From contig JAYZDP010000168.1 of NCBI GenBank assembly GCA_036337765.1, positions 3,247 through 67,246 of the forward strand: a stretch of DNA of 64,000 nt, read 5' to 3'. Position 1 is the first letter of the stretch. Each line of letters opens with the position of its first letter. A program made the position numbers and the translations under genes. The DNA comes from Acidobacteriota bacterium. Its GTDB lineage: Bacteria > Acidobacteriota > Thermoanaerobaculia > Multivoradales > Multivoraceae. A model generated the notes under the pieces. That model was not told the DNA's origin. It did no database searches and saw nothing but the letters and a program-made list of their open reading frames with translations. Positions 1,099-60,023 of this stretch are shown here, in pieces.

Positions 1099-4000
1099 GA
1101 CTCGACCACTCCTTCGTCCAAGAGTTTCTCCTCTGCGCTCTCCCAGCGCGAGGCGAGATCGTAGACCGGGTCGGTGAGCAGATCGGCCACCGACATGACA
1201 CCGAGAACATCGTCGCGAAAGACCGGCTCGGTCTCGGTCACTGCGTCGCGCAACGCCGTATACCGGTTGCGGTACGACTCGAGAATCGCGCGCATCACCT
1301 CGCCGGGAACGTGGTCGTGGAATCGCACGTGCAGGAGCAAGAGCCCTGGCACCGCCGTGCCATCGACCTCGGGTATGAGAATCACGGTTCTGCCGTCGCT
1401 GCGGCCCCGAGCCACCGTCAGGATGCGCTCGTTGGCGACCAGATGCTTGGTGCCAAGCAGCTGGGGGTTGTCGTCGGTGCGTGACGACAGCTGCTCGCCG
1501 ATGCCGCCCGTACCGACCACTCCGATCGAGCCGCTCTGACGCGCCTCTCGACCTGCCCCGAGCTCGATGCGATACCGCGTGTGCCCCAGGACCTCGGCCA
1601 CTGACGCGTCGAGGCCGGCTAGTGCACGCAGATCGCGGTAGGTGATCTGCGCCTGTGGCGTTCCAGCCGCAAGCACCGCCTGCACCAGAGGTAGGACGAA
1701 CAGACCCTCGTCGGCACGCGAGATACCTACCGTGACCGTTTTCGCCTGGTGCTTGATGGCGTCGATCGGCCTAGTGAGCTCATCGATTCCGTCGGTGAGA
1801 GCGGTCATCAGCTCCTCGACGACCCTCGCGGGTGTCGCAGCCCCCTCGCCCTGGGCAGCGAACGATTCGAGCGGCAAGAGCCGCCGAGCGTAGGCGAGCA
1901 GCGTGGCCAGCCGGACGGCCGTCGATGCTTCCAGCTGACCGTCGTACTCGCCGGACGCGAGGCCGGTCGAAAACACGTCGGCCGGCTGGGCGATACGCGG
2001 ACCGAGACGCTCCAGTGGGTCCTGCCCGGCCTCGAGCTCGCCGACGAGGGTCTCGATATGGCCACGGACCCGGCGCAGTGGTACAGCGAGGCTGTCGATC
2101 GCCAGCGCCGCCTCGTAGGCGAACAAATGACCGACCATCGTCGCCAGCACGAAGGCCAGGTGCGGATGGCAGGCCGGAACCTCGATCACATCGTCGGCAC
2201 CGTCGAAAACGCCGGAACCCTCGGTGGTGACAACCACCGGGGCTGCCTTGTGGGCGTTGTAGATCGCGACCTCTTTCGAGACGTCAGAGAGCGTCGACTG
2301 CGTCAGCCCGGGAGCGCAGACCAGAATCATCGGCTCTGACGACAGATCGATGTGCTTTTTGTCCTCCGTACCATCGCACGCGATCGCCTTATAGCAGAGC
2401 TCCGAGAGCTTGATCCGGATCTCCTCCGCCGCGATCCGGTTCCAGCCATTGCCGACCACGGCCCAGTAGCGCCGACGTGGACCGTGGCGAGCGGCCACGC
2501 GACCGATCACGTCACGACGGCCGAGAATCTCAATCATGATTCCCGGTAGAGCGAGCAGGCCTTCGACGAGGCCGACATCCTCCGCGTCGAGCCCGCCCTC
2601 CAAAACCTCCTGACGCAGCGCGAGTGCGAGCAGAAAGCCCGCCGCGATTTGCGAGTAGAAGGCCTTGGTAGACGCCACGCTCATCTCCACGTCGCGACCA
2701 TCGGACGTATAAAGCACACCGTCCGCCCGATCTACCAAGTCGCTGCCGCGCCGATTGACGATCGCCACCACGCGTGCGCCGCGCGCACGCACCAGATCGA
2801 CGGTGCGATTCGTGTCGGTGGTCGTACCCGACTGGCTGATGACCAGCACGAGCGAATCCGACATGTCGGACCGCAGGTGGAAGCCCGAGAGCTCGGTTGC
2901 CAGCATCGACTCGATTCGGAAGCGCTCCTCGGGCAGCGCGTCTTCGAGGGCCTTGGCGATCGCTCTCCCAGCGACGGCCGCCGTTCCCTGACCGATCACA
3001 AAGACTTGACGCAGCCGACCGTCGCGCATCCCAGCCACCACGTCCGCGGGCAGGCTAGCGGCACCGAGGTGGATCGCAACACCCGCCTCGCCGCTTCGGA
3101 TCTTGCCGCGCAGGGTCTTCGAGAACGAACGCGGCGCCTGATGGAGCTCCTTGAGCAGAAAGTGCGAAAACTCGCCGCGATCGATGTCGCGAGTGGTGAT
3201 CTCGGCGGCGTGGAGCTCGACCTCATCGACCGGCAGCTCGGTACCGTCGTACGCCAGGCGACGAATCCCCTCGAGGGTGCCGGCCTTCTCGCGATCGAGC
3301 ACCACGATCTGGCCTCGGCTCGCGTTGGGGTTTCTTGGATTGCCCGGCGTCTCGCCATCGACGCGCAGATAATGAGACGCCTGCTCGACCACCCCGTACG
3401 GCTCGCTCGCCACGATGAAGGCGCCGTCGGTGAGCCCGACGTAGAGCGCCTGACCGCTGCCGCGCAGGGCGAGCAGCATGTTGCCGCTCTCGGCGGTACT
3501 CTGGGCGGCGATCGCCACCGATCCTTCGAACGAGGCCACCGTCCGTCGGAAGGCCTCTTCGAGGCTCAGCCCCTCTGCAAGTCGGCGTGACACGAGTACC
3601 GGAATGACCTTGGCGTCGGTGGTGATCTCAGCTGGCAGCTCGATGCCCTCCGCTGCCACCAGCTTCTGATAGTTGTCGACGTCGCCGTTGAGCGCCGCGA
3701 CGACGTACGGGCCTTGCCGATGCGTGCGCACAAGGCCCTCTTCGTTGTTCAGGGGATGCGCGTTGGCCTCGCTGATCAGGCCGACGCTGGCCCAGCGGGT
3801 ATGGCCCAAGACACCATCCAGCGTGCCCGTGCCAAGGCCCGCCCGCAACAGTCGATCGTCGGCCGCCGCGCTACGTAGACGGCGACCGTTGTCACCGAGC
3901 TCGCCAATCTCGGCAGCCGCCTTGTAGACGAGACTCAGATGGCTGTCGTCCGGCCTGCGGACCGACCCCGAGACGAACAGCGGCGTCTTCTCTCGGCCCG

Positions 4001-4583
4001 CAGCCAGGTTCGCCGCTTCGGCGTCGCCGCCCTCGATCAACACGTGAACACCCGCCGAGTCGCGGCCGCGAACCTCGAGGCGGTCCAGCGCCGACATCAC
4101 CGCTTCGAGCGAGGAGAGCCCCTCGACGACGCCAGCCCGCAAGTCACCGGAGGCAAGCTCCCGCACTCGCGCCGCATGGCCCACCCGATCTTCGGACAGC
4201 GCCCATAGCAGGTCCCGGGTACGGATCAGCGCCGCATTCGTCCCCTCGAGACTGGCCGTGGCCATCTCCTTGGGCGCCTCGTCGAGGCCGCGCTCGAGGG
4301 CCACGCAACGCATCGTGGCCTCGTCGAGCTGCGCGCGCAGCTGGCGGCACAGATCCACGTCGGCGACCAGCAGGCGCACACCACCGGCCGAGCGCAGGAC
4401 CCCATCGAGACTTCGGAGGGCGTCGGCACTCCGCTCGAGTGATGCCTCCCATTCGTCAGCCGTACGGCCCGCTTCGGGCAGCGCCGCGACAGCTTCGGCC
4501 AGCGACTGGAGAAGGATTTCAGGAGGAGGCGGCTCAAGCCCGCGGGGAGTACCGAGAACGGCAACGATTCCGCACACGGTCAT
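1095..4583 (-). CDS. Large GlmS-like protein: class-II glutamine amidotransferase domain (with an insertion) plus two to three SIS domains and a C-terminal extension, 1162 aa
   Basis: N-terminal (M)TVCGIVAV matches the MCGIV Ntn-Cys start. GlmS-like motifs RGRDSAGV, GHTRWAS and NGDVDNYQKL are present. SIS motifs LVLVISQSGTTTDT and VVGNGWNRIAAEEI are present. KTVTVGISR resembles the GlmS C-terminus, but about 330 more aa follow. A GTG at 4577 would place Cys at position 2, as GATase II requires. Confidence 0.7.
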   Translation of the reverse strand: MTVCGIVAVLGTPRGLEPPPPEILLQSLAEAVAALPEAGRTADEWEASLERSADALRSLDGVLRSAGGVRLLVADVDLCRQLRAQLDEATMRCVALERGLDEAPKEMATASLEGTNAALIRTRDLLWALSEDRVGHAARVRELASGDLRAGVVEGLSSLEAVMSALDRLEVRGRDSAGVHVLIEGGDAEAANLAAGREKTPLFVSGSVRRPDDSHLSLVYKAAAEIGELGDNGRRLRSAAADDRLLRAGLGTGTLDGVLGHTRWASVGLISEANAHPLNNEEGLVRTHRQGPYVVAALNGDVDNYQKLVAAEGIELPAEITTDAKVIPVLVSRRLAEGLSLEEAFRRTVASFEGSVAIAAQSTAESGNMLLALRGSGQALYVGLTDGAFIVASEPYGVVEQASHYLRVDGETPGNPRNPNASRGQIVVLDREKAGTLEGIRRLAYDGTELPVDEVELHAAEITTRDIDRGEFSHFLLKELHQAPRSFSKTLRGKIRSGEAGVAIHLGAASLPADVVAGMRDGRLRQVFVIGQGTAAVAGRAIAKALEDALPEERFRIESMLATELSGFHLRSDMSDSLVLVISQSGTTTDTNRTVDLVRARGARVVAIVNRRGSDLVDRADGVLYTSDGRDVEMSVASTKAFYSQIAAGFLLALALRQEVLEGGLDAEDVGLVEGLLALPGIMIEILGRRDVIGRVAARHGPRRRYWAVVGNGWNRIAAEEIRIKLSELCYKAIACDGTEDKKHIDLSSEPMILVCAPGLTQSTLSDVSKEVAIYNAHKAAPVVVTTEGSGVFDGADDVIEVPACHPHLAFVLATMVGHLFAYEAALAIDSLAVPLRRVRGHIETLVGELEAGQDPLERLGPRIAQPADVFSTGLASGEYDGQLEASTAVRLATLLAYARRLLPLESFAAQGEGAATPARVVEELMTALTDGIDELTRPIDAIKHQAKTVTVGISRADEGLFVLPLVQAVLAAGTPQAQITYRDLRALAGLDASVAEVLGHTRYRIELGAGREARQSGSIGVVGTGGIGEQLSSRTDDNPQLLGTKHLVANERILTVARGRSDGRTVILIPEVDGTAVPGLLLLHVRFHDHVPGEVMRAILESYRNRYTALRDAVTETEPVFRDDVLGVMSVADLLTDPVYDLASRWESAEEKLLDEGVVES

Positions 4584-9955: not shown

Positions 9956-10234
9956 ATGAGGATCTATATCGGCAACCTCCCCTACACCAGCAACGAGGAG
10001 GAAATCAGGGAGCTCTTCGGTTCCTATGGCGCAGTGGACTCGGTGGACCTGATCACCGATCGAGAGACGGGCAGGCCCCGCGGCTTTGGCTTCGTCGACA
10101 TGTCCAGCGGCGGGGCCGAGGCAGTCTCCGCGCTTCACGACAGCGCGTTCGGCGGCCGCACCCTGACGGTCAACGAAGCACGCCCTCGAGAGCCCAGATC
10201 GGATCGAGGCGGTGGCGGCGGCGGCTCCTGGTAA
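9956..10234 (+). CDS. RRM-type RNA-binding protein with glycine-rich tail
   Basis: RNP-2 IYIGNL and RNP-1 RGFGFVDM, C-terminal GGGGGG. GAGGAG sits 5 nt upstream of the ATG. Confidence 0.85.
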   Translation: MRIYIGNLPYTSNEEEIRELFGSYGAVDSVDLITDRETGRPRGFGFVDMSSGGAEAVSALHDSAFGGRTLTVNEARPREPRSDRGGGGGGSW

Positions 10235-21534: not shown

Positions 21535-21567
21535 GGCCGGGCGCCCTCGAGCGCCCAAGGCCTCTAG

Positions 21568-21612
21568 GCCTGCGCTCTGCCGGAGCACCGGACGGCGTGC
21601 GCCCCCCGCTAG
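21568..21612 (-). repeat. degenerate, internally deleted copy of the intergenic repeat family (see the 38781 copy)
   Basis: Begins GCCTGCGC..CCGGAG and ends CGCCCCCCGCTAG, where CTA is the TAG stop of tdk, as in the full copies. Flanked by two short GC hairpins. Confidence 0.4.
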
Positions 21613-22178: not shown

Positions 22179-22294
22179 GCGGTCCTGGCTACCTGGCTCG
22201 AGACGGCTCATCCGATCGGCATTGTAGCGGGGGTCGCGGTACGAGCGCTTTACCGCCTCGACCCCCACCTAGCCATGACCTACCGCGACCCCCG

Positions 22295-22990
22295 CTACCT
22301 CCGGGTCGCTTCCTGCAGTCTTGCCTGCAGATCCTCCATCTTGACCGCCATGAGAGTCTGGACGACTGCATCGGCCGATGACAGCTCGCCGGCATCGTGC
22401 GTATGTGCGACACCGAGTGTCGCCAACCCCGCTCCGGCCGCAGCCGTGATTCCGACCGGCGTATCCTCTACGGCCAACACCTCGTGGGGATGAAACAGCC
22501 GCTCGGGCAGCGGAGGCAGCGCGTTGAGATCCTGCAAAGCACGCAGGTACGGCGCCGGGCTCGGTTTGGGCTGGGCCACGTCCTCGGCCGAAACGATCGA
22601 CTTGAAGACCTCAAAGAGCTCTGCCTGGCGCAAGGCCGACTCGATCTCGCCCCACAGCGCGCTGGAGACCAGACCCAGAGTGATGTCACGGGCGTGGGCG
22701 TCACGCACCAGCTCGACGGCTCCCGGAAAGAACTCGAACCCGTCCTCGTGGATACGCTCCTGGTAGTAGCTCCCCTTGCGCGCGACCAAACGGATGATCC
22801 GGATCTCGTCGGGTGCCTCGCCCGCGGCCTCGAGCGCCCGGCCCAGGCAAGTCCGATCGTCGAGGCCGATCATTCCGGCGATCAGCTCGTCGTCGACATC
22901 GAGACACTCTTCGTCCAGAACCCGTCGTATCAGCTCCTGGTGCAGCGGCTCGTCGTCGACGAGAACGCCGTTGAAATCGAACAGAATCGC
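22295..22990 (-). CDS. HAD-superfamily hydrolase (phosphatase, beta-PGM-like subfamily IA)
   Basis: Motif I ILFDFNGVLVDDE (DxD). GTG at 22990 gives 232 aa; the ORF opens at 23320. Confidence 0.7.
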   Translation of the reverse strand, partial: AILFDFNGVLVDDEPLHQELIRRVLDEECLDVDDELIAGMIGLDDRTCLGRALEAAGEAPDEIRIIRLVARKGSYYQERIHEDGFEFFPGAVELVRDAHARDITLGLVSSALWGEIESALRQAELFEVFKSIVSAEDVAQPKPSPAPYLRALQDLNALPPLPERLFHPHEVLAVEDTPVGITAAAGAGLATLGVAHTHDAGELSSADAVVQTLMAVKMEDLQARLQEATRR

Positions 22991-24591: not shown

Positions 24592-24632
24592 TGTTGCCCC
24601 GGCCAGCGAGACCCCGGTACACTTCGACCGCC

Positions 24633-24986
24633 ATGGACCCGCACTTTGACGGAGTCATCTTCAAGACCAGCTCCCAGGAGCTCGAGCGCCGGATGCGTTT
24701 CGAGCACCCTCCGTACCTGCTGATCGACGTTCGCGAGGCCGCCGAACGCTCCTCGGGATCGATCGCCGGCTCCGTAGCCCTCGATGCCGGCGGGCTAGAA
24801 GCGCTCCCCGAAGGCTCGAGCGCTTCGACCGAGTTCATCGTCGTTGGTTCCGATCAGTACGACCCGCGAGTCCGCGATATGGCGCAGCGGCTGCGCGAGC
24901 TAGGCGCTCAGCGCGTAGTCGAGCTACCCGGCGGCATGTTCGAGTGGCACGCTGCGGGAGCCGCGGTAGTCATTGATGGCGAGTGA
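24633..24986 (+). CDS. rhodanese-like domain protein lacking the catalytic cysteine
   Basis: Rhodanese-fold layout with the active-site loop reading VVGSDQYDPR (D in place of C). Start is 24594 or 24633. Confidence 0.5.
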   Translation: MDPHFDGVIFKTSSQELERRMRFEHPPYLLIDVREAAERSSGSIAGSVALDAGGLEALPEGSSASTEFIVVGSDQYDPRVRDMAQRLRELGAQRVVELPGGMFEWHAAGAAVVIDGE

Positions 24987-25004
24987 GTCGAGGCTGTAGC
25001 GCGC

Positions 25005-27152
25005 TCATACCGCAGCCCGCGCTCGCCTCTCCAGGAGGGCCTGCTGCGAATCTGGTGATCGCTCGTCGCTGTCGGGCACGCGCGAGTAGCTGCCGTCGGG
25101 CTCCAGCACACGAGCCTTGACCGAGTCACGCAGGTGCGTGAACAGGATCGCGTCGCGCACCTCGACAAGTAGCCTGTCGTCCTCGATCGGGAACAGCAGC
25201 TCGACGCGACCATTGAGGTTGCGAGGCATCAGGTCGGCACTACCGACGAAGACCTCCTCGTCGCCGCCGTTGCGAAAGTAGTAGATGCGAGAGTGCTCGA
25301 GGAAGCGGCCGACGATCGAGGTCACCGCGATCGTCTCGCTCACCCCCGGCACGCCGGGCCGCAGGCAACAGACGCCCCGCACCTGGAGATCGATGCGGAC
25401 CCCCTCGGCGGAGGCCCGGTAGAGAGACTGAATGCACGCTCGATCCACCAGCGAGTTGACCTTGAAGGCAATGTGGCCGTCTCCACCCGCGCGGTGACGC
25501 TCAATCTCGCGGTCGATGCGGCGCAGGATCTCACCGCGCATGTGCGATGGCGCGACCAAGAGCTTGCGATACGCCTGCTTGCGCGAGTAGCCGGTGAGGG
25601 TGTTGAAGAGCAGCGCCACGTCTTCGGCAATCGCCTCGTCGCAAGTGAAGAAGCCCAGATCGGCGTAGATCCTCGACGTGACGACGTTGTAGTTGCCGGT
25701 CGAGAGATGGACGTAGCGGCGGATACCCGAGCGTTCTCGGCGCACGACCAGGCACATCTTGGCGTGGGTCTTCAGGCCGAGCACACCGTAGACCACGTGC
25801 ACGCCCGCCTGCTCCAACGCACGACCCCATTCGATGTTCGACTCCTCGTCGAAACGGGCCTTGAGCTCTACCAGCACCGAAACCTGCTTGTTGTTCTCGC
25901 GCGCCTCCATCAGGGCCTCGACGACGGGTGAGTCCGGACCGACGCGATAGAGCGTCTGCTTGATCGCCAGCACGTCGGGATCCTGGGCCGCCTGACGCAG
26001 GAAGCTCACCACGGGAGCAAAGCTGTCGTACGGGTGGTAGAGCAGCAGATCTCGTCGGGCCACGGCCGAGAAGATGTTGGCGTCGGACGCGACCTGCGGC
26101 GGCACCGCAGGTAGGAAGGGCGGGTACTTGAGCTCTGGCGCGTCGAGGCCGCAAAGCTCTGAGATGTTCGCCAGACCGATCCGGCTGCGGGTCGCGTAAA
26201 CCTGGTGGCTCTCGAGCTCGAGGTTCTCGATCAGGATGTCGCGGATTCGAGGTGGCATCGCTTCATTGATCTCGAGCCGGATCGCGGAGCCAAAATGGCG
26301 CCTGCCTACGACCTCGGCCATGGCCGTGAGGAGATCGTCCGCCTCGTCCTCCTCGAGGTCCAGATCGGCGTCGCGGGTGACCCGAAAGGGGAAGGCAGCG
26401 ATGATCTCGAGCCCCGGGAAGAGGAGGCCGAGATTCGCCACGATCACCTCCTCGATCAGCACGAAGCCGCGCGAACCGGACCCCATCGGTCCGACCGCCT
26501 CCGGACTCTCGAGCTCAAGCTGGGGAACGGCGAGCAGCCGGGGGAAGTTTGCGGGGACCTTGAGCCGGGCGAAACGCTCGCCGTAGCCGGGATCCTCGAG
26601 TAGCACGGCGAGGTTGACGCTCAGATTCGAGATGTGCGGGAACGGGTGGCCTGGGTCAAAGGCCAGCGGCGTCAGGACTGGAAAGATCTCCGACTCGAAC
26701 CTTGCGCCCAGCGCCTCCTGCTCGGCAACGTCGAGTTCCTGCCACGACTGCACTCGAATCCCGGCCTCGCGCAGCTGAGGGCTCAGCTGCTCGATCCAGC
26801 ATCCATCGGCGAGCTCGAGCAGCGGCAGGAGGGATTCCCGGATCTCCTGCAGCTGTTCGGCCGGCGTCATGCCATCGGGAGGCGCCTCCAAAACGCCGGC
26901 CTTGAGCTGCTGTCGCAGGCCCGATACGCGCACCATGAAGAACTCGTCGAGGTTGCCGGCGAAGATCGAGAGGAAGTTCACCCGCTCAAGCAGTGGCGTC
27001 GACGGGCTCATCGCCTCCTCCAGCACCCGGCCGTTGAAGCGCAGCCAGCTCAGCTCGCGATTGATGAAAAGCGCCGGATCACTGGGGTCAGGCTTCGCGC
27101 CGAGCTCGACTGCACGCAGGATCACAGCTGTATCTTCTTTGGTCTGAGACAT
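25005..27152 (-). CDS. ppk: polyphosphate kinase 1
   Basis: N-terminal FINRELSWLRFNGRVLEEA and RVNFLSIFAGNLDEFFMVRV. PLD-like HKM motifs are present (LKTHAKMCLV). 715 aa. Confidence 0.92.
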   Translation of the reverse strand: MSQTKEDTAVILRAVELGAKPDPSDPALFINRELSWLRFNGRVLEEAMSPSTPLLERVNFLSIFAGNLDEFFMVRVSGLRQQLKAGVLEAPPDGMTPAEQLQEIRESLLPLLELADGCWIEQLSPQLREAGIRVQSWQELDVAEQEALGARFESEIFPVLTPLAFDPGHPFPHISNLSVNLAVLLEDPGYGERFARLKVPANFPRLLAVPQLELESPEAVGPMGSGSRGFVLIEEVIVANLGLLFPGLEIIAAFPFRVTRDADLDLEEDEADDLLTAMAEVVGRRHFGSAIRLEINEAMPPRIRDILIENLELESHQVYATRSRIGLANISELCGLDAPELKYPPFLPAVPPQVASDANIFSAVARRDLLLYHPYDSFAPVVSFLRQAAQDPDVLAIKQTLYRVGPDSPVVEALMEARENNKQVSVLVELKARFDEESNIEWGRALEQAGVHVVYGVLGLKTHAKMCLVVRRERSGIRRYVHLSTGNYNVVTSRIYADLGFFTCDEAIAEDVALLFNTLTGYSRKQAYRKLLVAPSHMRGEILRRIDREIERHRAGGDGHIAFKVNSLVDRACIQSLYRASAEGVRIDLQVRGVCCLRPGVPGVSETIAVTSIVGRFLEHSRIYYFRNGGDEEVFVGSADLMPRNLNGRVELLFPIEDDRLLVEVRDAILFTHLRDSVKARVLEPDGSYSRVPDSDERSPDSQQALLERRARAAV

Positions 27153-29114: not shown

Positions 29115-29191
29115 GTAGAGGCAATGCTACTCCCGCAGCCACACTCCTGCCCTACCCGCCCGACAGGCGGCGCCCCTTCCCCTCCCTCCGG

Positions 29192-29303
29192 GCCTGCGCG
29201 GCGAGCGCTCCCCCGAGGGACAGCAAGACCAGCGGGGGTCGCGGTATGAACGCGCAACACCCACGACAAACCATCAAACCATGACTACCGCGGCCCCCGC
29301 TAG
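29192..29303 (-). repeat. intergenic MITE/REP-like repeat, copy A (terminal inverted repeat AGCGGGGGTCGCGGTA / TACCGCGGCCCCCGCT)
   Basis: Aligns along its whole length with the copies at 38781-38891 and 58450-58561. The 3' end CCCCCGCTAg supplies the TAG stop of moeZ. Confidence 0.7.
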
Positions 29304-30472
29304 TAGCGGAGTACGTCGGGATCGACCTCGAGACTCCACGAGTCGATGCCACCCTTCATGTTCTTCACCTTCGAGAACCCGAACTCCTGGAGCAGATGTA
29401 CCGCCCGGGTCGAACGGGGCCCGTGGTGGCAGTGGGCAACGATGAAGTCTCGTGGGTCGAGCTCACCGATGCGGTCCTGGAGATCGGCCACTGGAATGAC
29501 GATTGAGCCGTCGATACGGCAGATCTCAATCTCCTCGGGATTGCGGACGTCGAGAATCGTGATCTGATCGCCGCGATCGAGCATCTCCTTGACTTCAGTC
29601 ACTGTGATGTCGATGTCGTCGGCGCCCGCGGGCTCCTCGATCGGGATGCCGCAGAACTGTTCGTAGTCGATCAGCTCGATCTGGGTCGGATTCTCCCCGC
29701 ACACCGGGCAGTCCGGGTTGCGACGCAGCTTGAGCTCGCGGAACTTCATGCGCAGGGCATCGAAAAGCGCGAGGCGGCCGATCATAGGCTCACCCTTGCC
29801 GATGATCAGTTTGATCACCTCGTTGGCCTGCAGCGAGCCGATGATGCCAGGCAGCACACCCAGGACCCCGCCCTCGGCGCACGACGGGACGAGCCCCGGC
29901 GGCGGCGGTTCCGGGAAGAGGCACCGGTAGCACGGTCCCTTCTCTGCCCAAAAGACCGAGACCTGCCCCTCGAAGCGGAAGATTGACCCATACACGTTCG
30001 GCTTGCCCGTCAGCACACAGGCGTCGTTGACCAGGTAGCGGGTCGGAAAGTTGTCGGTACCGTCGACCACGATGTCGTAGTCCTTGACGATGTCCAGAGC
30101 GTTGGACGAGTCGAGGCGTACCTGGTGCGGGATCAAGGTGACGTAAGGATTGACGATGTTGAGCCGCTCCATCGCCGCTTCGATCTTGGGCCGGCCGACA
30201 TCGGCCAGACCGTAGAGCAGTTGGCGATGCAGATTCGACTCGTCAACCTCGTCGAACTCGACCAGGCCCAGGGTGCCGACGCCGGCCGCGGCGAGATACA
30301 TCCCGAGCGGCGAGCCAAGCCCACCGGTACCGACCATCAGCACGCGAGCGGCCTTGAGCTTCTGCTGACCGAGCGTGCCGACCTCCGGCATGATCAGGTG
30401 GCGGCTGTAGCGCCGAATCTCCTCTGGGCTCAGGTCCGGCAGGGTGGTCGTGTCGTCTTGTACGAGGGTCAT
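29300..30472 (-). CDS. moeZ: MoeZ/MoeB-type E1-like adenylyltransferase with C-terminal rhodanese domain
   Basis: ThiF/MoeB nucleotide-binding GTGGLGSP. CxxC pairs present. C-terminal rhodanese with catalytic CHHGPRS. Confidence 0.9.
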   Translation of the reverse strand: MTLVQDDTTTLPDLSPEEIRRYSRHLIMPEVGTLGQQKLKAARVLMVGTGGLGSPLGMYLAAAGVGTLGLVEFDEVDESNLHRQLLYGLADVGRPKIEAAMERLNIVNPYVTLIPHQVRLDSSNALDIVKDYDIVVDGTDNFPTRYLVNDACVLTGKPNVYGSIFRFEGQVSVFWAEKGPCYRCLFPEPPPPGLVPSCAEGGVLGVLPGIIGSLQANEVIKLIIGKGEPMIGRLALFDALRMKFRELKLRRNPDCPVCGENPTQIELIDYEQFCGIPIEEPAGADDIDITVTEVKEMLDRGDQITILDVRNPEEIEICRIDGSIVIPVADLQDRIGELDPRDFIVAHCHHGPRSTRAVHLLQEFGFSKVKNMKGGIDSWSLEVDPDVLRY

Positions 30473-30750
30473 GGGGCTCCTCCTGCGATCGACGGGATGA
30501 TCGACAGCGTATCGCCCTCGGAAACCGGCGTCGCATCCTGCTGCAGGTGGCGCACGTCCTCATCGTTGAGGAAGAGATTGACGAAGCTGCGCAGTTTGCC
30601 GTCGTCGCTGTACAGATGGGGCTTGAGCGCCGTGTGCCGCTCGACCAGGCTCGAGAGCGCCTCGCCGACGGTCGTCCCGTCGACCTCCACCTCTCCCGCG
30701 TCGCCTATGAAGCGCTGCAGGGGCGTGGGGGCATGAATCGAAATCGCCAT
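30469..30750 (-). CDS. cysO: CysO-like ubiquitin-fold sulfur carrier protein (ThiS/MoaD family) ending ...IAGG-AP
   Basis: Clear similarity to M. tuberculosis CysO (RFVNIYVNDEDVRF vs SFVNLFLNDEDVRH; ILPAVAGG vs IIPSIAGGAP). AGGAG lies 6 nt before the ATG at 30750. Overlaps the moeZ start by 4 nt. Confidence 0.8.
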   Translation of the reverse strand: MAISIHAPTPLQRFIGDAGEVEVDGTTVGEALSSLVERHTALKPHLYSDDGKLRSFVNLFLNDEDVRHLQQDATPVSEGDTLSIIPSIAGGAP

Positions 30751-30770
30751 GCAGATCTCCTGGTTTCTTG

Positions 30771-31241
30771 CTACTCCGAAGCGGCCGTTGAGACCCCTAC
30801 TCGGCGACCCGCCGCATCGAGGACGGTCTCCTCGTCGAATGCGGTCCGGTCGTCTTTGAGCCTCCAACTACGGCAGTCGGCAACCTCTCCGCTCTGCACG
30901 GAGATGATCAGGTAACTCTGTCCTGGCCAGGCGTGGTCACGGTCGAAATCACTCGGCCGCGCCGGGTGATCGGGGTGCGAATGATAGTAGCCCACGACCT
31001 CGAACTGCCGAGCCCTCGCGCTGCGCTGTGCCTCCATTAGAGCCTGGGGACTGATCAGGAAGCGATTGTGGCGATTCTCGTCCTCACGCTCGTTTCGCGC
31101 CGAGACGATCTCGACCACCTCGGCCTGATCGCCGTTACGGAGAGTCCCGATCATCACCCCGCAGCACTCCTCGGGGTAGGTCGCGCGGCCGTCCGCGTAG
31201 ATCCGCTCGATGTCGTCGTCGGTCAGTTGCAGGCTCATCAT
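30771..31241 (-). CDS. mec: Mec+/JAMM (MPN+) zinc metalloprotease
   Basis: JAMM motif E..(EECCG)...HSHPDHPARPSDFD (HxHx7Sx2D). 156 aa. Confidence 0.8.
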   Translation of the reverse strand: MMSLQLTDDDIERIYADGRATYPEECCGVMIGTLRNGDQAEVVEIVSARNEREDENRHNRFLISPQALMEAQRSARARQFEVVGYYHSHPDHPARPSDFDRDHAWPGQSYLIISVQSGEVADCRSWRLKDDRTAFDEETVLDAAGRRVGVSTAASE

Positions 31242-31735
31242 TCGTCCCAGAAACGCTCAGATAAGTACTTGTCGGCGCTGCCGCAAAGGACCGTCACGAG
31301 AGTGCCGGCCTCGATCTCACGACTGAGCGCGAGCGCCGACGAGACCGGGATCATAAATCGGCGGCACGATCGCTGTCTCCATGTGTTTCATGCCTTCCAG
31401 GCCGTGGAACGGCCCGTCCGGCTCGATGGATACGAGCCGGGCCCTCGATCCTGCTCTCTGAGCGCCTCGCGAATCGCACCGCCGAAGCCTTCCACCGGAT
31501 CAGTCAGGACCAACTCGGCACCGTACGCCGCGAGAATCCGCTTCTCGGGCGACAGCGCGCCCCGCGCGATGGCATCCTCGACCATCGCCAGACCGGGGCG
31601 GTCTTTCACCGATCCGCCGGGGTTGGTGTACTCGGCCTTGGCGAATAGCCGGACCTCTGGATTACCCACCAGGTCGACGACCCGGCACGGCCGAGGCAAG
31701 CCGCGAGAGGTGGGAGGAGTGGAGGTCAGGGCCAT
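31238..31735 (-). pseudogene. cysM: decayed remnant of cysteine synthase cysM/cysK (PLP fold-type II)
   Basis: The N-terminus has the PLP-lysine motif NPGGSVKDRP, but the TSGNTG loop region is deleted. An in-frame TGA lies at 31388-31390. The C-terminal ...LVTVLCGSADKYLSERFWDE is present. Total span is about 500 nt against about 950 nt for an intact gene. Its stop overlaps the mec start (ATGA). Confidence 0.65.
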
Positions 31736-31825
31736 GGGAGCACGGATCCTAGCAAAACGTGACCTTTTTACTAACAATTAGGAAAACGAGCGATTCCGGG
31801 CGCTGGCGGAGCTACAATCCGCTCG

Positions 31826-32473
31826 ATGGACGACACGCCCCACACCGCTGACGACAGGGTCCCTCCCGGTCAGTACGTAACCGACAAGTGGCCAGTTCTG
31901 AGCTACGGACCGACTCCCGAAGTGGATCTCTCCCGATGGCGGCTGCGGATCTTCGGCTCGGTAGCCACCGACCGAGCGCTCAGCTGGGAAGATCTCCAGG
32001 CCCTAGAGAGGACCGATCTCATCGCCGACTTCCACTGCGTGACGCGGTTTTCGACACTCGACAACCCGTGGAGCGGATTCGCCACGCGGCGCATTCTCGA
32101 ACTCGCCGACGTCGCCCCAGAATCGATCCACGTGATGATCCACTGCGCGGATGGCTACACCACCAACCTCCCCCTCGAGGACCTCCTCTCCGAACGGGCG
32201 CTCGTGGCCGATCGTCACGCCGGGGAGCCGCTGGCCGCGGATCACGGTGGGCCCCTGCGGCTGATCGTGCCGCACCTCTATGCCTGGAAGAGCGCCAAGT
32301 GGGTCTCCGGCATCGAGATCCTGGAGAGCGACCGGCGCGGTTTCTGGGAGCAGGCCGGCTACCACACCTACGGCGACCCATGGACCGAGCAGCGCTTCAG
32401 TTCGCAGGAGTTCACGGCAGCGCACCAGGTCCGGCGCCGAGCGAAGGAACTGGGCCTCAAGCTCACCTCCTAG
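31826..32473 (+). CDS. sulfite-oxidase-family molybdopterin-binding oxidoreductase domain protein (YedY/SorA-like)
   Basis: Moco-binding motif ADFHCVTRFS (HCVTxWS). 215 aa. Confidence 0.75.
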   Translation: MDDTPHTADDRVPPGQYVTDKWPVLSYGPTPEVDLSRWRLRIFGSVATDRALSWEDLQALERTDLIADFHCVTRFSTLDNPWSGFATRRILELADVAPESIHVMIHCADGYTTNLPLEDLLSERALVADRHAGEPLAADHGGPLRLIVPHLYAWKSAKWVSGIEILESDRRGFWEQAGYHTYGDPWTEQRFSSQEFTAAHQVRRRAKELGLKLTS

Positions 32474-32488
32474 GAAGCACCGCCACCT

Positions 32489-32950
32489 TCAGCGCGCGAT
32501 CTCTTCGAGCTTCTGGCGTAGCTTGGCGCGATCTTCGATGCCGCGCGCGATGATCAGGATCGTGTCGTCTCCCGCCAATGTGCCGACGACCTCTGGCAGC
32601 CCACACTCGTCGAGTGCCACAGCGACAGCGTTGGCGCGACCGCTCAGGGTTCTGAGCACGAGCAGCGAGTCGCCCGTGTCGATCTTGGTCAGGTACTGCT
32701 CGCAGGCACGGCTCAACTGCCGTTCGAGTCGCTGCTGCGAAGGGCCGCCAGTGCCAGGCGCGGCGTAGCGATAGCCGCCGCGACGTGCCGGCCGTTTGAC
32801 CAGGCCAAGGCGCTTGACGTCTCGTGAGACGGTCGCCTGTGTGACGTCGAAGCCGCGGTCACGGAGGCGCTCGACAAGCGAAGACTGGTTGGCGACAACC
32901 GAGTCCTCGACGATCTCGAGGATGGCGTGCTCGCGAGCCCGTTGGCTCAC
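32489..32950 (-). CDS. argR: arginine repressor
   Basis: N-terminal winged helix (SQSSLVERLRDRGFDVTQATVSRDVKRLGL) and a C-terminal oligomerisation/arginine-binding domain (GDDTILII). Confidence 0.9.
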   Translation of the reverse strand: MSQRAREHAILEIVEDSVVANQSSLVERLRDRGFDVTQATVSRDVKRLGLVKRPARRGGYRYAAPGTGGPSQQRLERQLSRACEQYLTKIDTGDSLLVLRTLSGRANAVAVALDECGLPEVVGTLAGDDTILIIARGIEDRAKLRQKLEEIAR

Positions 32951-38721: not shown

Positions 38722-38722
38722 G

Positions 38723-38740
38723 AATGAATCATTATTCATT
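38723..38740 (-). promoter_or_regulatory. ARG box (ArgR operator) AATGAATcattATTCATT overlapping the argC start and promoter
   Basis: Matches the TnTGAATwwwwATTCAnw consensus (TGAAT-N4-ATTCA). It sits in the only AT-rich patch of the region. A sigma70-like TTGCAT-N17-AATAAT on the minus strand (38759-38754 / 38736-38731) overlaps it. Confidence 0.6.
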
Positions 38741-38780
38741 CATACGATATATTATGCAACCTCTTTCTCAGCTACTCAAA

Positions 38781-38891
38781 GCCTGCGCGCTGAGCGGCCC
38801 CGGAGGGACAGAATAGGTAGCGGGGGTCGCGGTATGAGCGCACTACAGCTTCGACGCCCACCCAACAATGACTACCGCGACCCCCGCTACC
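38781..38891 (-). repeat. intergenic MITE/REP-like repeat, copy B (perfect 19-bp terminal inverted repeat GGTAGCGGGGGTCGCGGTA ... TACCGCGACCCCCGCTACC)
   Basis: Perfect 19-bp inverted repeat flanking a loop of about 40 nt. The 5' part GCCTGCGCG...CCGGAGGGA is shared with copies A and C. The 3' end CCCCCGCTAc supplies the TAG stop of the rhomboid gene. Confidence 0.75.
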
Positions 38892-39747
38892 CGCCGCGAA
38901 CGAGCGGGAGACCGTGAAGGAAGGAAGCGAGGATCGCCAGACCGCTGACAACGATCAAGGCTCCAGCTGCCATCAGATGATCGGTGCGCTCCGGCTTCAG
39001 CGGGTCGAGCCACTTGGCAACCAGATAGCCGCCTCCGAACCCGCCAAGGTGGGCCCAGTTGTCGACACTCGACATGACGAAGCCGAACATGATGAGGACG
39101 ATCGCGTAGCCAAGGGCCTGAGACCGGACCGCCGTCTGCCCCGTTCGCCGACCGTAGTAGACGAGCGCCCCCAGGAGACCTAGGATCGCAGCCGAGGCGC
39201 CAACCGTCTGCCCGGCGGGCAGCAGGAAGGGGATCCGGATCGGCAGGAAAACGGCGAGACTGGTCGCTGTGAAGCCGACGGCCGAGGAGAGCACATAGAT
39301 GATCACCACCCGTCCTGGGCCGTAGAGGCGTGACACGGCGGGGATCAGCTGGTTGGCCCACATCATGTTGAAACCGATGTGCAGCAGCCCGCCATGAAGC
39401 CAACCGGCGCTCAGGACCGTCCACCACCGATTCTCTTGGAGCACCGGGATCACGCCCGAGCTCCCGAACAGAAAGGTGCTCCGGCCACTCGGCGAGAGCA
39501 TGGTGAAAAGCCCGCCGCCACCGATGCCACTCGGATCGGTGACGAGCATGAGCACATACAGCACGCCGCAGGCGTAGAGCACGACGCGGCTGAACACCAC
39601 CTCGGAGCCGATGACTCTCAGTAGCAATGAGAATCCCCACATTCCTGGATTCCGCCTGCCACAACTCCAACACTGATCATCGTTGACCCCGACCAGCTTG
39701 CCGCAGGCCGGGCAGACCACCGATCCCGTCGTCTGACGCTTGAACAT
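38887..39747 (-). CDS. rhomboid-family intramembrane serine protease with N-terminal zinc-ribbon
   Basis: N-terminal CPACG...CWSCG. Rhomboid catalytic GASAAILG (GxSG) and HLGGFGGG. 6 TM. Confidence 0.8.
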   Translation of the reverse strand: MFKRQTTGSVVCPACGKLVGVNDDQCWSCGRRNPGMWGFSLLLRVIGSEVVFSRVVLYACGVLYVLMLVTDPSGIGGGGLFTMLSPSGRSTFLFGSSGVIPVLQENRWWTVLSAGWLHGGLLHIGFNMMWANQLIPAVSRLYGPGRVVIIYVLSSAVGFTATSLAVFLPIRIPFLLPAGQTVGASAAILGLLGALVYYGRRTGQTAVRSQALGYAIVLIMFGFVMSSVDNWAHLGGFGGGYLVAKWLDPLKPERTDHLMAAGALIVVSGLAILASFLHGLPLVRGG

Positions 39748-57378: not shown

Positions 57379-58290
57379 CTATCCTTCCGACCGCAGGGCC
57401 CTTCGGGCCTTGATTGCCGCCTGTCTAACCTTCAGGCTGGGGTCCTCCTCGGCGAGCACAGAGACCAGCTCGAGTTTCCCGGACTGCTCCAGCCTCACCA
57501 GCGCGCGTAGCGCGCCGATCATCGCCTCTTCCTGCTGCAGGGGAGTGATCTCGGGCACCTGGGACAGGAAGCGGCGATCGAGCATCTGCTCGAGGACCTC
57601 AACCCCCTCGTCGCGCCCGAGTTCTGAGAGGGCCAACGCCGCGTTCCAACGCACGTCCGCCACCGGGTCTTCGACCAGCACCGCCAGCGAGTCCGCAACC
57701 TGTGGCTCGTCAAACCCACCTAACGCATACGCTGCGGTCTTGCGAATGCCGGCGTCGCTGTCTGCGATACCGGCCTGAACCGCGGCGAGGCCGCGTCGGT
57801 CTCCGATCGAACCGAGCGACATCAGCGCATAGATCCGAGTCTGGGAATCTTCGCCGCCGGCCGCGTCGATGAGTAGCGGTACGGCCTCGCGATCCTCGAT
57901 GTGGCCCAGAACCAGGGCGAGATAGCGGCGTACCCAGATGTCCTCGGTGCGCTCGAACAGGCGGCGCAGCTCGACCTCGCCACCCGGCTCCTCGTTCAGC
58001 GCCTCCGGATCGGCGCTGAGAATCTTCGACAACTCGTAGGCCGCCTGCTTGCGGCGGTGCGCGAAGAAGGAGCGATTGTCGCGCAGGTCGTTCAGGTAGT
58101 CGCCTACCGACTGGCGATCGTAGGCGACCCAGCCGAAGAGGACGAACACCCCCACGCACATGATGACCACCAATAGAGGGACCACGAACAGCCCGACGAT
58201 CTGGCGCACCCCGCTCGCAGAAGCTGGCTCGCGCGGTGAGGGAACGCCCGGGTCCGGCGACGGACCCGCAGCGGTAGCTTCCTCGGACAT
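57379..58290 (-). CDS. membrane-anchored HEAT-repeat (PBS-lyase-like) protein
   Basis: One TM helix followed by repeated AxxALGxIGD/ALxxL HEAT-like units. 303 aa. Confidence 0.6.
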   Translation of the reverse strand: MSEEATAAGPSPDPGVPSPREPASASGVRQIVGLFVVPLLVVIMCVGVFVLFGWVAYDRQSVGDYLNDLRDNRSFFAHRRKQAAYELSKILSADPEALNEEPGGEVELRRLFERTEDIWVRRYLALVLGHIEDREAVPLLIDAAGGEDSQTRIYALMSLGSIGDRRGLAAVQAGIADSDAGIRKTAAYALGGFDEPQVADSLAVLVEDPVADVRWNAALALSELGRDEGVEVLEQMLDRRFLSQVPEITPLQQEEAMIGALRALVRLEQSGKLELVSVLAEEDPSLKVRQAAIKARRALRSEG

Positions 58291-58377: not shown

Positions 58378-58397
58378 CTTGTGAAAAATTTCACAAG
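58378..58397. promoter_or_regulatory. CRP/FNR-family binding site CTTGTGAaaaattTCACAAG (TGTGA-N6-TCACA)
   Basis: Perfect match to the CRP consensus half-sites, with 9-bp arms. Centre lies about 96 nt upstream of the HEAT-protein gene start, at the head of the bc/cox operon. Confidence 0.55.
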
Positions 58398-58449
58398 TGG
58401 AACGGTGCCGAATGGAGACACCTCGACACTAGTCGACCTGGGGTTCCGG

Positions 58450-58561
58450 GCCTGCGCGGCGAGCGCCCCCCGGAGGGAAGGAATACTAGCGGGGGGCGTG
58501 GCATGAGCGCGCTCCGACCTCGACCCCGCCTCACAGCCATGGCCACCGCGCCACCCGCTAG
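58450..58561 (-). repeat. intergenic MITE/REP-like repeat, copy C (more diverged stem)
   Basis: Shares GCCTGCGCGGCGAGCGCCCCCCGGAGGGA...CTAGCGGGGGG...CCACCCGCTAG with copies A and B. The 3' CTA supplies the TAG stop of the YkvA-like gene. Confidence 0.65.
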
Positions 58562-59064
58562 TGCGTCGGGCCTCCGACTCGCAATCCCCAGCGCGTCAGG
58601 ACCCGGGCTAGCCGGCCCTGCAGGCGGCTTGAGAGCAGCGAGTCCGCGGCTCGGGCTGCGTCGGCAAGCACCTCCTGAAAACGGCGCGATCCGCTCCAAT
58701 GCCGGGTCACCACGTCCTCCATGTCTTCGGTCAGCACGTGACTCACGACGGTCGCCGCGATCACGACGTCATCGAGAAATCCACCAAAGCCGAGCAGCGC
58801 CTCGGGAAGGAGGTCCACAGGCAACACGAAGTAGGCCAGCGCACCACCAATCAGTGCCCGCGTCGACTGCGGCACCTCACGATCGAAAAACATCCGCACC
58901 AGCAGGATGAACAGGTCTGGCGCCGCGAGCAGGGCCTCCGAGGCACGGTCGCCGACGCGGCGAGACAGGCTCACCTCCATCCGGTCCCGCAGCCGATCGT
59001 AGAAAACCAACAACCGCTCGGAATCGAGATCCTCTCCGTCGATCGTCGCCGTTTCGTCGCTCAT
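58558..59064 (-). CDS. DUF1232/YkvA-family membrane protein
   Basis: Conserved ALAYFVLPVDLLPEALLGFGGFLDDVVIAATV segment. Start at the internal MSDETATIDG (59064); the ORF opens at 59136. Confidence 0.6.
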   Translation of the reverse strand: MSDETATIDGEDLDSERLLVFYDRLRDRMEVSLSRRVGDRASEALLAAPDLFILLVRMFFDREVPQSTRALIGGALAYFVLPVDLLPEALLGFGGFLDDVVIAATVVSHVLTEDMEDVVTRHWSGSRRFQEVLADAARAADSLLSSRLQGRLARVLTRWGLRVGGPTH

Positions 59065-60023
59065 CTTGGAATCCGATCCCGCCAGTGCTCGAGTAGATCC
59101 TCCAGCGTCTGCTGGAGCGGAATGCCAGGCACCCAACCCGTGGCGTCGCGGAACTTGCTCGCGTCACCGATCAGGATCTCGACATCGGAGGGTCGCATGC
59201 GTTCGGGATCCGTCTCGATCTCGACTGCGACCTCCGACAGACCCAGCAGTGTATCGAGGAGCTCCCTGATGGAGACACCGCGCCCGGACGCGAGGTTGTA
59301 GACCTCACCCGGCTCGCCGAGGGTCGCGGCGAGGTAGTAGCCCCTGGCAATGTCGCGGACGTCGGTGAAGTCGCGAATGGCATCGAGGTTGCCAACGCGC
59401 AGCACCGGCTCACAGCGCCCCGCCTCGACCAGCGCAATCTGGCGGGCAAAGTTGGAGGCTACGAACACATCGCCCCGACGCGGCCCAGTGTGATTGAAGG
59501 CACGCGTGCGCACGATGTGCAGGCCGTAGCTCTTCTCGTACTGGTAGCCGAGATAGTCCTGGGCGACCTTCGAGACCGCGTAGGGTGACAGCGGCCGCAG
59601 CGGGTTCGACTCGGTGATCGGGATCTCGTCGCGGTTCACCAGACCGTATTCCTCGCTGGACCCGGCAATCTGGATCGCCGGGTCGATGCCGAGGCTGCGC
59701 ACCGCCTCGAAGAGGTAGGTCTGACCGATGATGTTGGTGGTCAGGGTCTCCGCCGGACCGGTCCAACTCGCCGGGACGTAGCTCTGCGCAGCAAGATGGA
59801 AGATGATGTCGGGCCGCAGCTTGTCGAGTGTGCGGTGCATCGAGGTGTAGTCGCGCAGATCCGTCTCGAGCAGCGTCACGCGCTCTCGAAAGCTCCTGAC
59901 GTTGCCCATCGGCGAGCGCCATCGGAACGTTCCCGCCACCTCCAGCTCGGGATGCTCCGCAAGCAGAAACTCGGCCAGGTGCGAGCCAGCGAAGCCCGTG
60001 ATGCCGGTGATCAGCGCCCTCAT
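59061..60023 (-). CDS. GDP-mannose 4,6-dehydratase family / GDP-6-deoxy-4-keto-mannose reductase (Rmd)-like SDR
   Basis: ALITGITGFAGSHLAEFLL, catalytic YAVSK (YxxxK). ATG at 60023 preceded by AGGAGCTGGGG. Overlaps rmlD by 4 nt. Confidence 0.75.
   Translation of the reverse strand: MRALITGITGFAGSHLAEFLLAEHPELEVAGTFRWRSPMGNVRSFRERVTLLETDLRDYTSMHRTLDKLRPDIIFHLAAQSYVPASWTGPAETLTTNIIGQTYLFEAVRSLGIDPAIQIAGSSEEYGLVNRDEIPITESNPLRPLSPYAVSKVAQDYLGYQYEKSYGLHIVRTRAFNHTGPRRGDVFVASNFARQIALVEAGRCEPVLRVGNLDAIRDFTDVRDIARGYYLAATLGEPGEVYNLASGRGVSIRELLDTLLGLSEVAVEIETDPERMRPSDVEILIGDASKFRDATGWVPGIPLQQTLEDLLEHWRDRIPR

Follow-up and report, generated by a model that had tools for sequence, protein, structure and literature searches.

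In a stretch of 64,000 nucleotides (64 kb; the window) of contig JAYZDP010000168.1 from an Acidobacteriota bacterium of the Thermoanaerobaculia, we studied a family of palindromic repeats whose predicted hairpins begin at the stop codons of genes. Comparison with relatives showed that these repeats were gained recently and at stop codons that already existed. We infer that they are non-autonomous mobile palindromic repeats of the REPIN/MITE kind (REP, repetitive extragenic palindrome; REPIN, REP doublet forming a hairpin; MITE, miniature inverted-repeat transposable element). Five copies, designated A, B, C, E and F, were called in the window and a sixth on a metagenome contig (L122). Read on the minus strand of the window, the direction in which the upstream gene runs, the unit begins with the TAG stop codon, continues through a 14-nt arm core (CGGGGGYCGCGGTA), a loop of 38–41 nt and the inverted arm (TACCGCGRCCCCCG), and closes with CTA; with TAG counted, the arm (TAG)CGGGGGYCGCGGTA has 17 nt and the inverted arm reads TACCGCGRCCCCCG(CTA). 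Beyond CTA follow two variable bases, the short spacer (T)ATTCTGT and a GC-rich tail of 40 nt, CCCTCCGGGGG.CGCTCGCCGCGCAGGCC(CGG), which is usual but not universal, being present in A, B, C and the L122 copy and missing from E and F.

Insertion of the repeats at existing stop codons

Five syntenic loci of relatives (L119, L120, L121, L123 and L124; about 75 kb) were compared with the window. The MoeZ proteins of the closest relatives are 83–87% identical to that of the window (best value 87%), and the best named MoeZ matches, from Thermoanaerobaculia/Acidobacteriota, reach 72–79%. Searches with nhmmer and with a covariance model detected the element nowhere in the roughly 75 kb of syntenic DNA and, because the orthologous sites of the relatives are empty, it was gained in the lineage of the window organism. 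At the end of moeZ, the window reads TAC TAG|CGGGGGCC, whereas L119 and L123 have TAC TAG followed by an unrelated spacer and L121 and L124 have TAC TGA, none of them with an element. Once the element is subtracted, the spacer after moeZ amounts to 73 nt, as compared to 56–75 nt at three of the relatives' loci and 145 nt in L121. Similarly, orthologs of the haloacid dehalogenase (HAD)-type hydrolase encoded upstream of copy E have the same last residue as the window protein, followed by TAG in L119 and by TGA in L121, and the 3' flank of copy E, TACAATGCCGATC, compares with TACGATGCCG and TACGATCGCCGATC in relatives. Since element-free moeZ and HAD orthologs stop at the same codon, the orthologous sequences show the stop position to be ancestral and the element to have been inserted exactly at an existing stop rather than to have created one. 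The preliminary description had stated that the 3' end of the repeat always supplies the TAG stop of the adjacent gene. "Supplies" is therefore misleading, as the orthologous genes stop there without the element, be it on TAG or on TGA, and "always" is wrong because two convergent genes end inside the loop of copy F.

In the window, the CTA at 29300–29302 (copy A) is the TAG stop of minus-strand open reading frame (ORF) 29300–30472, which encodes a MoeZ-like ThiF plus rhodanese protein, the CTA at 38887–38889 (copy B) is that of the minus-strand rhomboid ORF 38887–39747, and the CTA at 58558–58560 (copy C) is that of minus-strand ORF 58558–59136 for a DUF1232/YkvA-like protein, all three assigned by Pfam and homology. 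The CTA at 22295–22297 (copy E) is the TAG stop of the HAD-hydrolase ORF, and this copy ends 13 nt before the probable start of tdk (ATG at 22211). Copy F has no TAG at its junction; there, the convergent rhodanese ORF (24594–24986, plus strand; stop TGA at 24984–24986) and polyphosphate kinase ORF (25005–27152, minus strand; stop at 25005–25007) both end on TGA within the loop. The last 5–8 residues of both proteins are encoded by copy F and differ from those of the orthologs; in the relative L119, the two stops overlap in a single CTAA/TTAG. All five copies in the 64 kb lie downstream of ORFs, between unidirectional or convergent gene pairs, and, as judged from loop ends and tail, all six copies are oriented alike with respect to the gene reading into them. 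TAG or CTA stands at the outer ends of both arms: a bare hairpin would offer TAG in either orientation.

Could this association be a small-number coincidence or an artefact of ORF calling? Only six copies are at hand, TAG accounts for about one third of the stops in the window (TGA 33, TAG 17 and TAA 4 in a rough set of 54 ORFs), and TAG at both ends of the palindrome would stop any in-frame ORF entering from either side. However, the element occupies four of the 17 TAG stops and none of the 37 TGA or TAA stops, and, with the elements excluded, the window offers another 93 TAG trinucleotides in non-coding DNA. Were every non-coding TAG a suitable site, finding four out of four at stops would have p ~6e-4. 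Starts located exactly on a TAG stop, observed for four of the five window copies and for the metagenome copy, would be expected in about 15% of cases under the same assumption. The ORF ends are real, because ortholog C-termini end at the same residue (MoeZ ...RY*, HAD ...RR*/RS*), and the pattern is repeated by an independent copy in another organism. We therefore consider chance or miscalled ORFs a highly improbable explanation.

Copies of the family and their hairpins

Copies A, B and C align end to end over about 110 nt, each with a stem of 17–19 bp and a conserved 40-nt tail. Alignment and ORF stops thus confirmed the positions and the full-length similarity originally reported for these three, and the reported terminal inverted repeat of about 19 bp, perfect in copy B, and central loop of about 40 nt agree with the stem and loop lengths determined here. 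Copy A (29184–29304, minus strand) has its hairpin at 29228–29304, with the stem formed by 29228–29246 and 29286–29304 around the loop 29247–29285 (covariance model, 92 bits) and, in the mRNA sense, one C.A mismatch and one G.U pair. Its tail (29184–29227; E=1.4e-9 with the hidden Markov model, HMM, of the tail) holds an imperfect palindrome, CCCTCCGGG...CCCGAGGG, around GCGC-N5-GCGC. In copy B (38781–38891, minus strand), the hairpin (H1; 38816–38891) pairs 38816–38834 with 38873–38891 around the loop 38835–38872 (93 bits), and the arms are a perfect 19-bp inverted repeat, GGTAGCGGGGGTCGCGGTA / TACCGCGACCCCCGCTACC. The tail of copy B (38781–38815; GC-rich GCCTGCGCGCTGAGCGGCCCCGGAGGGAC plus the spacer AGAATA; tail HMM E=4e-9) lies on the side away from the rhomboid gene and just upstream of a promoter-like site of argC. 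Copy C (58444–58562, minus strand) has a more degenerate stem in its hairpin at 58484–58562, with one mismatch, a 2-nt bulge and two G.U pairs (80 bits), and a tail at 58444–58483 (tail HMM E=9e-10).

Copies E and F, which had not been listed before, were found by repeat and pattern searches. Copy E (22223–22299, minus strand; stem 22224–22241 with 22281–22298; 87 bits) consists of the hairpin only, and copy F (24952–25024, plus strand; 77 bits) has the opposite orientation in the window, decayed arms in which 12 of 15 positions pair, and no tail. By contrast, a segment at the tdk stop (segment D; 21567–21612, minus strand), given in the preliminary description as a degenerate copy at 21568–21612, has only GGCCTGCGC and (G)CGCCCCCCGCTAG in common with the family, the exact shared words being GGCCTGCGC and CCCCGCTAG; the full-element HMM is silent there and the tail HMM gives E=14. 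This segment may be a tail-like relic, a membership without statistical support.

Pairwise identity among the five window copies is 68–86%, the closest hairpins being those of B and E (86%), and loops are 46–82% identical whereas the arms are nearly invariant. The edges of the loop are asymmetric, with GGTAGTCAT... on one side and ...TCATACC on the other. Similarity rankings differ slightly between tail and hairpin (0.82 and 0.72, respectively, for A–C; 0.70 and 0.81 for A–B).

The similarity of the copies greatly exceeds chance. With up to three mismatches allowed, a 16-mer of the arm matched the window 12 times when 1.5 matches were expected, and none of 100 shuffled sequences reached 12. 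Full-element nhmmer E-values ranged from 1e-20 to 1e-31, with a model built from the same copies. The hairpin covariance model returned exactly the five copies A, B, C, E and F in the window, and neither this model nor the nhmmer models of the whole element or the tail gave extra copies in the window or in the relatives; likewise, the tail-only HMM found no solo tails in the window or in the relatives' loci. Among genome contigs, the 16-mer arm alone gave 118 matches in unrelated phyla, none of them with a partner arm; these are chance matches in coding DNA (YRDPRY-type codons). A BLAST search of a plasmid collection gave no match to the element. Rfam 15 gave no match in the window at gathering score and none to a family at E<=1, the weak generic matches to miRNA-precursor hairpins scoring 17–25 bits as compared to gathering scores of 70–168.

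When JGI metagenomes were scanned with a two-arm pattern, a single contig was matched, Ga0114949_10153252 (L122), so the family is rare in these data. The copy on this contig, which has hairpin and tail and a different loop, likewise begins at a TAG stop, here that of an unrelated DsbA-like gene; two or more organisms therefore harbour the family, and the genes next to it are unrelated. With few loop substitutions, the L122 locus is found again in ENA, JGI and NCBI records. About 30 nt past the tail, at L122 ~148–166 (also L125 1176–1194), lies a third, solo arm-like segment, CGGGGCCGCGGTAGTGAC in the gene sense, which may be the remnant of a neighbouring copy or a sign of copy clustering.

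Predicted hairpin energies range from -57 to -70 kcal/mol. The preliminary description had proposed a very stable GC hairpin that begins at the stop codon, and the hairpin does begin there. Stability beyond that of shuffled sequences was found for B and E (mRNA-sense z-scores of -4.25 and -2.3, respectively) and not for A, C and F, because their composition is GC-rich; folding is equally good on the opposite strand. An RNAalifold consensus of the copies has a stem of 19 pairs, three of which changed on both sides, showing that the stem was kept by changes on both arms, and it contains no conserved structure in loop or tail. G.U pairs number three in the mRNA sense and one in the antisense. An arm together with the adjacent half of the loop reaches only -2.7 to -5.4 kcal/mol (z -1.1 to +0.3 against shuffles), with no more than a 3-bp GCG...CGC pairing possible. 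The tail folds in A and C and beats its shuffles in no copy, and we rejected the idea that it forms a second hairpin.

Pairing extends into the host sequence. The two host bases before TAG are complementary to the two after CTA in copies A and C (AC/GT), in L122 (TC/GA) and in B (GG/CC), whereas the pairing is imperfect in E (GG/CA); complementarity ends after these 2 nt, the next position outward being at chance level. The closest copies have the same flanking dinucleotide, GG in B and E and AC in A and C. The AC before the TAG of moeZ is host sequence, because it is part of a Tyr codon conserved in all orthologs. The tag itself is GTAG in B and E, CTAG in A, C and L122 and GCTG in F, and it is paired with CTAC/CTAG of the opposite arm.

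Possible routes of mobilization

The suggestion that the repeat might be REP-like or a small mobile element with a preference for stop codons is supported by several diverged copies, empty orthologous sites, the metagenome copy and the bias towards TAG stops. As to how it moves, we favour mobilization in trans as folded single-stranded DNA, a reading to which we assign a probability of roughly 35 to 40%. The transposase would be of the HUH/Y1 type, either a REP-associated tyrosine transposase (RAYT) or one like those of the IS200/IS605 insertion sequences (IS), and would be encoded elsewhere in the genome. The element, including its tail, would be joined strand-specifically and immediately 3' of TAG on the lagging-strand template, where the target NNTAG may pair with a CTAN'N' that the element carries at its hairpin's 3' foot, and insertion would need no target duplication. 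At about 80% GC at third codon positions (GC3), tolerated sites of this kind would mostly be TAG stop codons, with selection removing other insertions. Whichever route was taken, the mRNA of each upstream gene bears a very stable hairpin starting from the stop codon; under the favoured reading, any protection or termination of its 3' end would be a by-product. A single-strand route accounts for the uniform orientation, for the covariation with bases of the host and for the dinucleotides common to related copies; it also accounts for the missing duplication at the tail end and for a tail that belongs to the unit. Judged by GC skew (-0.03) and gene bias (36 of 49 genes), four of the five copies in the window belong to the strand that presumably serves as lagging-strand template, as is expected of elements moved in this way.

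Several observations weigh against this route. A Pfam scan of about 40 ORFs of the window revealed no Y1/HUH or other transposase, and hence the cognate RAYT that the preliminary description proposed to look for was not found within the window. The arms are not hairpins by themselves (see the z-scores above), unlike REP units, GTAG is confined to B and E while A, C and L122 have CTAG, and E and F have no tail. The tail is weak as a second end hairpin because it folds no better than shuffled sequences, and the statistics of covariation and orientation are thin because there are only six copies. The 3' flank of copy E looks like native spacer, which fits a TA duplication or a later deletion. A RAYT locus of Korobacteraceae has flanking repeats that are unrelated to the family. 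Finally, a long perfect inverted repeat with TA on both sides in a palindromic NNTAN'N' context is also a classic signature of IS630/Tc1 elements.

This last point leads to a competing route, in which only the hairpin is the mobile unit, a MITE descended from an insertion sequence of the IS630/Tc1-mariner (DDE) type. In double-stranded form it would be cut out and pasted into a palindromic CTAG or GTAC at the TA, which would be duplicated, and its first base G would regenerate TAG; the tail would then have its own, earlier origin as a REP-like sequence or would be a favoured landing site. Insertions would pile up at stops because CTAG, very rare in this GC-rich genome, is mainly a C-ending codon followed by a TAG stop. 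Elements of the IS630 family target TA and duplicate these 2 bp on insertion, with a preference for CTAG in IS630 itself (PMC2170065, and Tenzen references cited there). In our copies, the ends are inverted and perfect over 17 bp, and TA occurs on both sides in four of the five intact copies (B, C, E and L122), copy A having TA/TG, although the flanking TA also belongs to the palindrome and to the stop codon. Flanks rebuild the palindromic hexamers ACTAGT (twice) and TCTAGA as well as GGTACC and GGTACA, the TAC in the 3' flank of E is matched by a native TACGAT in L119 and L121, and the slightly different similarity rankings of tail and hairpin, together with the tail-less copies E and F, would suit two separate sequences. 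In the loop, ATG directly follows one arm and TGA directly precedes the other, an arrangement expected if a transposase gene had been deleted, and we take this layout as a hint of such a gene. An IS630 route accounts for perfect ends of this length, for TA on either side, for the palindromic hexamers and for copies E and F having no tail.

However, it leaves the tail, the orientation and the ancestral stop of copy E unexplained. The conserved tail stands outside the inverted ends in four of six copies, yet solo tails are lacking in the window and in the relatives. All six copies have one orientation where double-strand insertion into a palindromic target would give random ones (p ~0.03). The ancestral stop at E occupies the exact codon, and a GTAC target there would require either an unlikely fused HAD–TK ancestor or an extra G-to-C change. 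That the closest copies have the same flanking dinucleotide is unexpected for independent targets, and no parent IS with a DDE transposase was found among the approximately 40 window ORFs searched by Pfam. The two routes suit different parts of the data, and we regard the IS630 origin as possible, though somewhat less probable than the single-strand route.

More specifically within the favoured single-strand route, the family could be the remnant of a guide-directed transposon that homes to stop codons by a 5-nt pairing of CTAN'N' with NNTAG, but we consider guided homing in this strict form unlikely.

Finally, the repeat might be a 3'-UTR (untranslated region) hairpin selected by the host as an exonuclease block, terminator or operon insulator, which spread, by recombination or another copying process, because it is useful after stops. 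The position downstream of an ORF in unidirectional or convergent gene pairs is as expected from such a role, as are the very stable hairpins, most clearly in B and E, and the slight excess of G.U pairs in the mRNA sense. Copy B lies between the rhomboid stop and the promoter/operator of argC, where insulation is plausible, and tail-bearing copies have a relatively U-rich UAUUCUGU after the hairpin. However, relatives do without the element at the same sites, the opposite strand folds equally well, A and C are no more stable than shuffles, and no Rfam family matches. With its long loop and no T-run, the hairpin is unlike an intrinsic terminator; a scan from 21.4 to 39.1 kb gave five terminator-like sites when 6.7 were expected, none of them at any copy. 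Its anatomy is not that of a canonical intrinsic terminator and speaks against the terminator role considered in the preliminary description. Strong termination is also disfavoured because copy E is located just upstream of the start codon of tdk, where it would be harmful, and copy F damages the C-termini of two genes. A host function would, moreover, leave the copying mechanism unexplained, and such an origin seems improbable to us.

Other candidates were rejected as well. A pyrrolysine or readthrough signal is contradicted by a second in-frame TAG four codons on (TAG CGG GGG YCG CGG TAG) in A, B, E and L122, and an integron attC site by flanks that are syntenic housekeeping genes and by the lack of a GTTRRRY core. 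A small ORF in the loop, starting ATG AGC GCN CTN and ending on TGA in several copies (12 codons in A, F and L122), is not conserved in frame or peptide.

Relation to known repeats and genomic surroundings

The sequence family is previously undescribed, whereas its kind is known and landing on TAG stops has already been reported for that kind (PMC3733652). GTAG-tagged REPs occur in more than 80 species, mostly downstream of ORFs and between unidirectional or convergent genes; TAG stops are frequently supplied by their termini, and dimers of REPs form large hairpins (Di Nocera et al., 2013; PMC3733652). A REPIN consists of two invariant inverted 16-mers and a less conserved spacer that together form a hairpin with compensatory changes, and a single-stranded tail complementary to the other REPIN end was proposed to act in target recognition (Bertels and Rainey, 2011; PMC3116915). 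The GTAG beside a REP serves as a guide when the Y1 transposase chooses its cleavage site (Corneloup et al., PMC8266576).

Like REPINs, the present repeats are extragenic and multi-copy and have two highly conserved inverted units (16–19 nt) around a spacer that is less conserved but constant in length. A long hairpin is predicted for both in single-stranded DNA or mRNA, and both have sequence outside the hairpin that is complementary to the other end. In the present repeats, inverted units and variable spacer fold into one hairpin with compensatory changes, namely the 19 pairs of which three changed on both sides. They differ from REPINs in that a REPIN arm contains a self-palindromic REP whereas the arms here do not fold alone, that no RAYT is known for the family, that a conserved 40-nt tail occurs on one side only, and that the arms are about 56 nt apart from start to start as compared to 71 nt in the GI family of SBW25. 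In the window, the repeats resemble REPs in being extragenic and downstream of ORFs, with five copies per 64 kb and four of five on a TAG stop, but they are not REPs in the strict sense because their arms are not themselves palindromic. With GTAG-REPs and the terminal inverted repeat (TIR) families located beside tyrosine transposases they share a terminal (G/C)TAG, the position downstream of ORFs and a terminus that coincides with the TAG stop, as stated for those families (PMC3733652), as well as dimers that fold into large stem-loops and copies that reach into coding ends, as F does here. In contrast, the GTAG of REPs is unpaired and their unit is a palindrome of 20–40 bp, whereas the tag here is paired and is CTAG in half of the copies, and the present family occurs in a different phylum.

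RUP of pneumococcus is an example of a bacterial MITE derived from IS630/Tc1-mariner elements. MITEs of this origin are comparable in length (~75–110 nt), in their long terminal inverted repeats, in TA flanks and in a palindromic CTAG-like target (biochemistry of IS630 and ISY100, PMC2170065). They differ from the present family, which has a tail outside the inverted ends, a fixed orientation, insertion almost only at stop codons and no known parent IS. PATEs are miniature elements derived from IS200/IS605. Elements of this kind insert strand-specifically and directly 3' of a short invariant motif, and they do not duplicate their target. In the guide and cleavage-site logic of IS608 and TnpA-REP (PMC8266576), the target is chosen by DNA–DNA complementarity with a short element-borne sequence beside a hairpin. 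Both properties are proposed here as well. IS200/IS605 elements, however, have two small subterminal hairpins with a guide 5' of each, whereas the present element has one long hairpin with the complement at its 3' foot.

The arms were also compared with the repeats that flank acidobacterial tyrosine transposases (PMC3733652), and we rejected a link, as the Korobacteraceae homologue is flanked by unrelated, self-folding 34-nt units. At that locus (L129), inverted units at 2935–2968 and 3493–3526, each with its own hairpin (GGCACGGCTTCAGCCGTGCC), enclose the RAYT-type gene in a textbook REPtron layout.

Around the copies, some further features were observed. Directly upstream of the likely true argC start (ATG at 38721; MIRASVVG, matching MLKASVVG in L121) lies an AT-rich palindrome of the TGAATGAATAATGATTCATTCA type at 38722–38745 (and 38751–38779), with a promoter-like TTGAGT-17-CATAAT just upstream. 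This palindrome is probably an ArgR operator (ARG box); an Arg_repressor gene (32489–32950) is located in the same operon as argC. A perfect palindrome of the CRP/FNR type, TGTGAAAAATTTCACA, occupies 58380–58395, just past copy C's tail and about 90 nt upstream of a HEAT-repeat ORF (57379–58290). moeZ is the last gene of a PALP (CysM-like)–JAB–ThiS–MoeZ cluster (29300–32000) that is kept in all relatives compared, among them L119, L121 and L124, and has the layout of sulfur-carrier (CysO-type) cysteine synthesis. Elsewhere in the window, ORF 1095–4583 (1162 aa) has GATase_6 and SIS domains only in its centre (residues ~256–654) and is about twice the normal length of a GlmS-type protein, being either a fusion or an over-long ORF call, and a 92-aa protein (9956–10234) is made up of just one RRM_1 RNA-binding domain of the eukaryotic type (E=2e-17).

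Taken together, these results add a REPIN/MITE-like family from a poorly sampled, uncultured lineage, for which comparisons of filled and empty sites show insertion exactly at a pre-existing stop. Copy F illustrates that such repeats can rewrite protein C-termini, and gene callers and terminator predictors should expect hairpins of this kind at TAG stops in this lineage. If the last codon of the host indeed covaries with the far foot of the hairpin, the family would offer a simple natural system for target choice by repeats such as REPs and REPINs. If guided homing were true, the last two bases of the host's final codon would be "read" by the element, and subfamilies differing in N'N' would each spread to a set of stop codons of their own.

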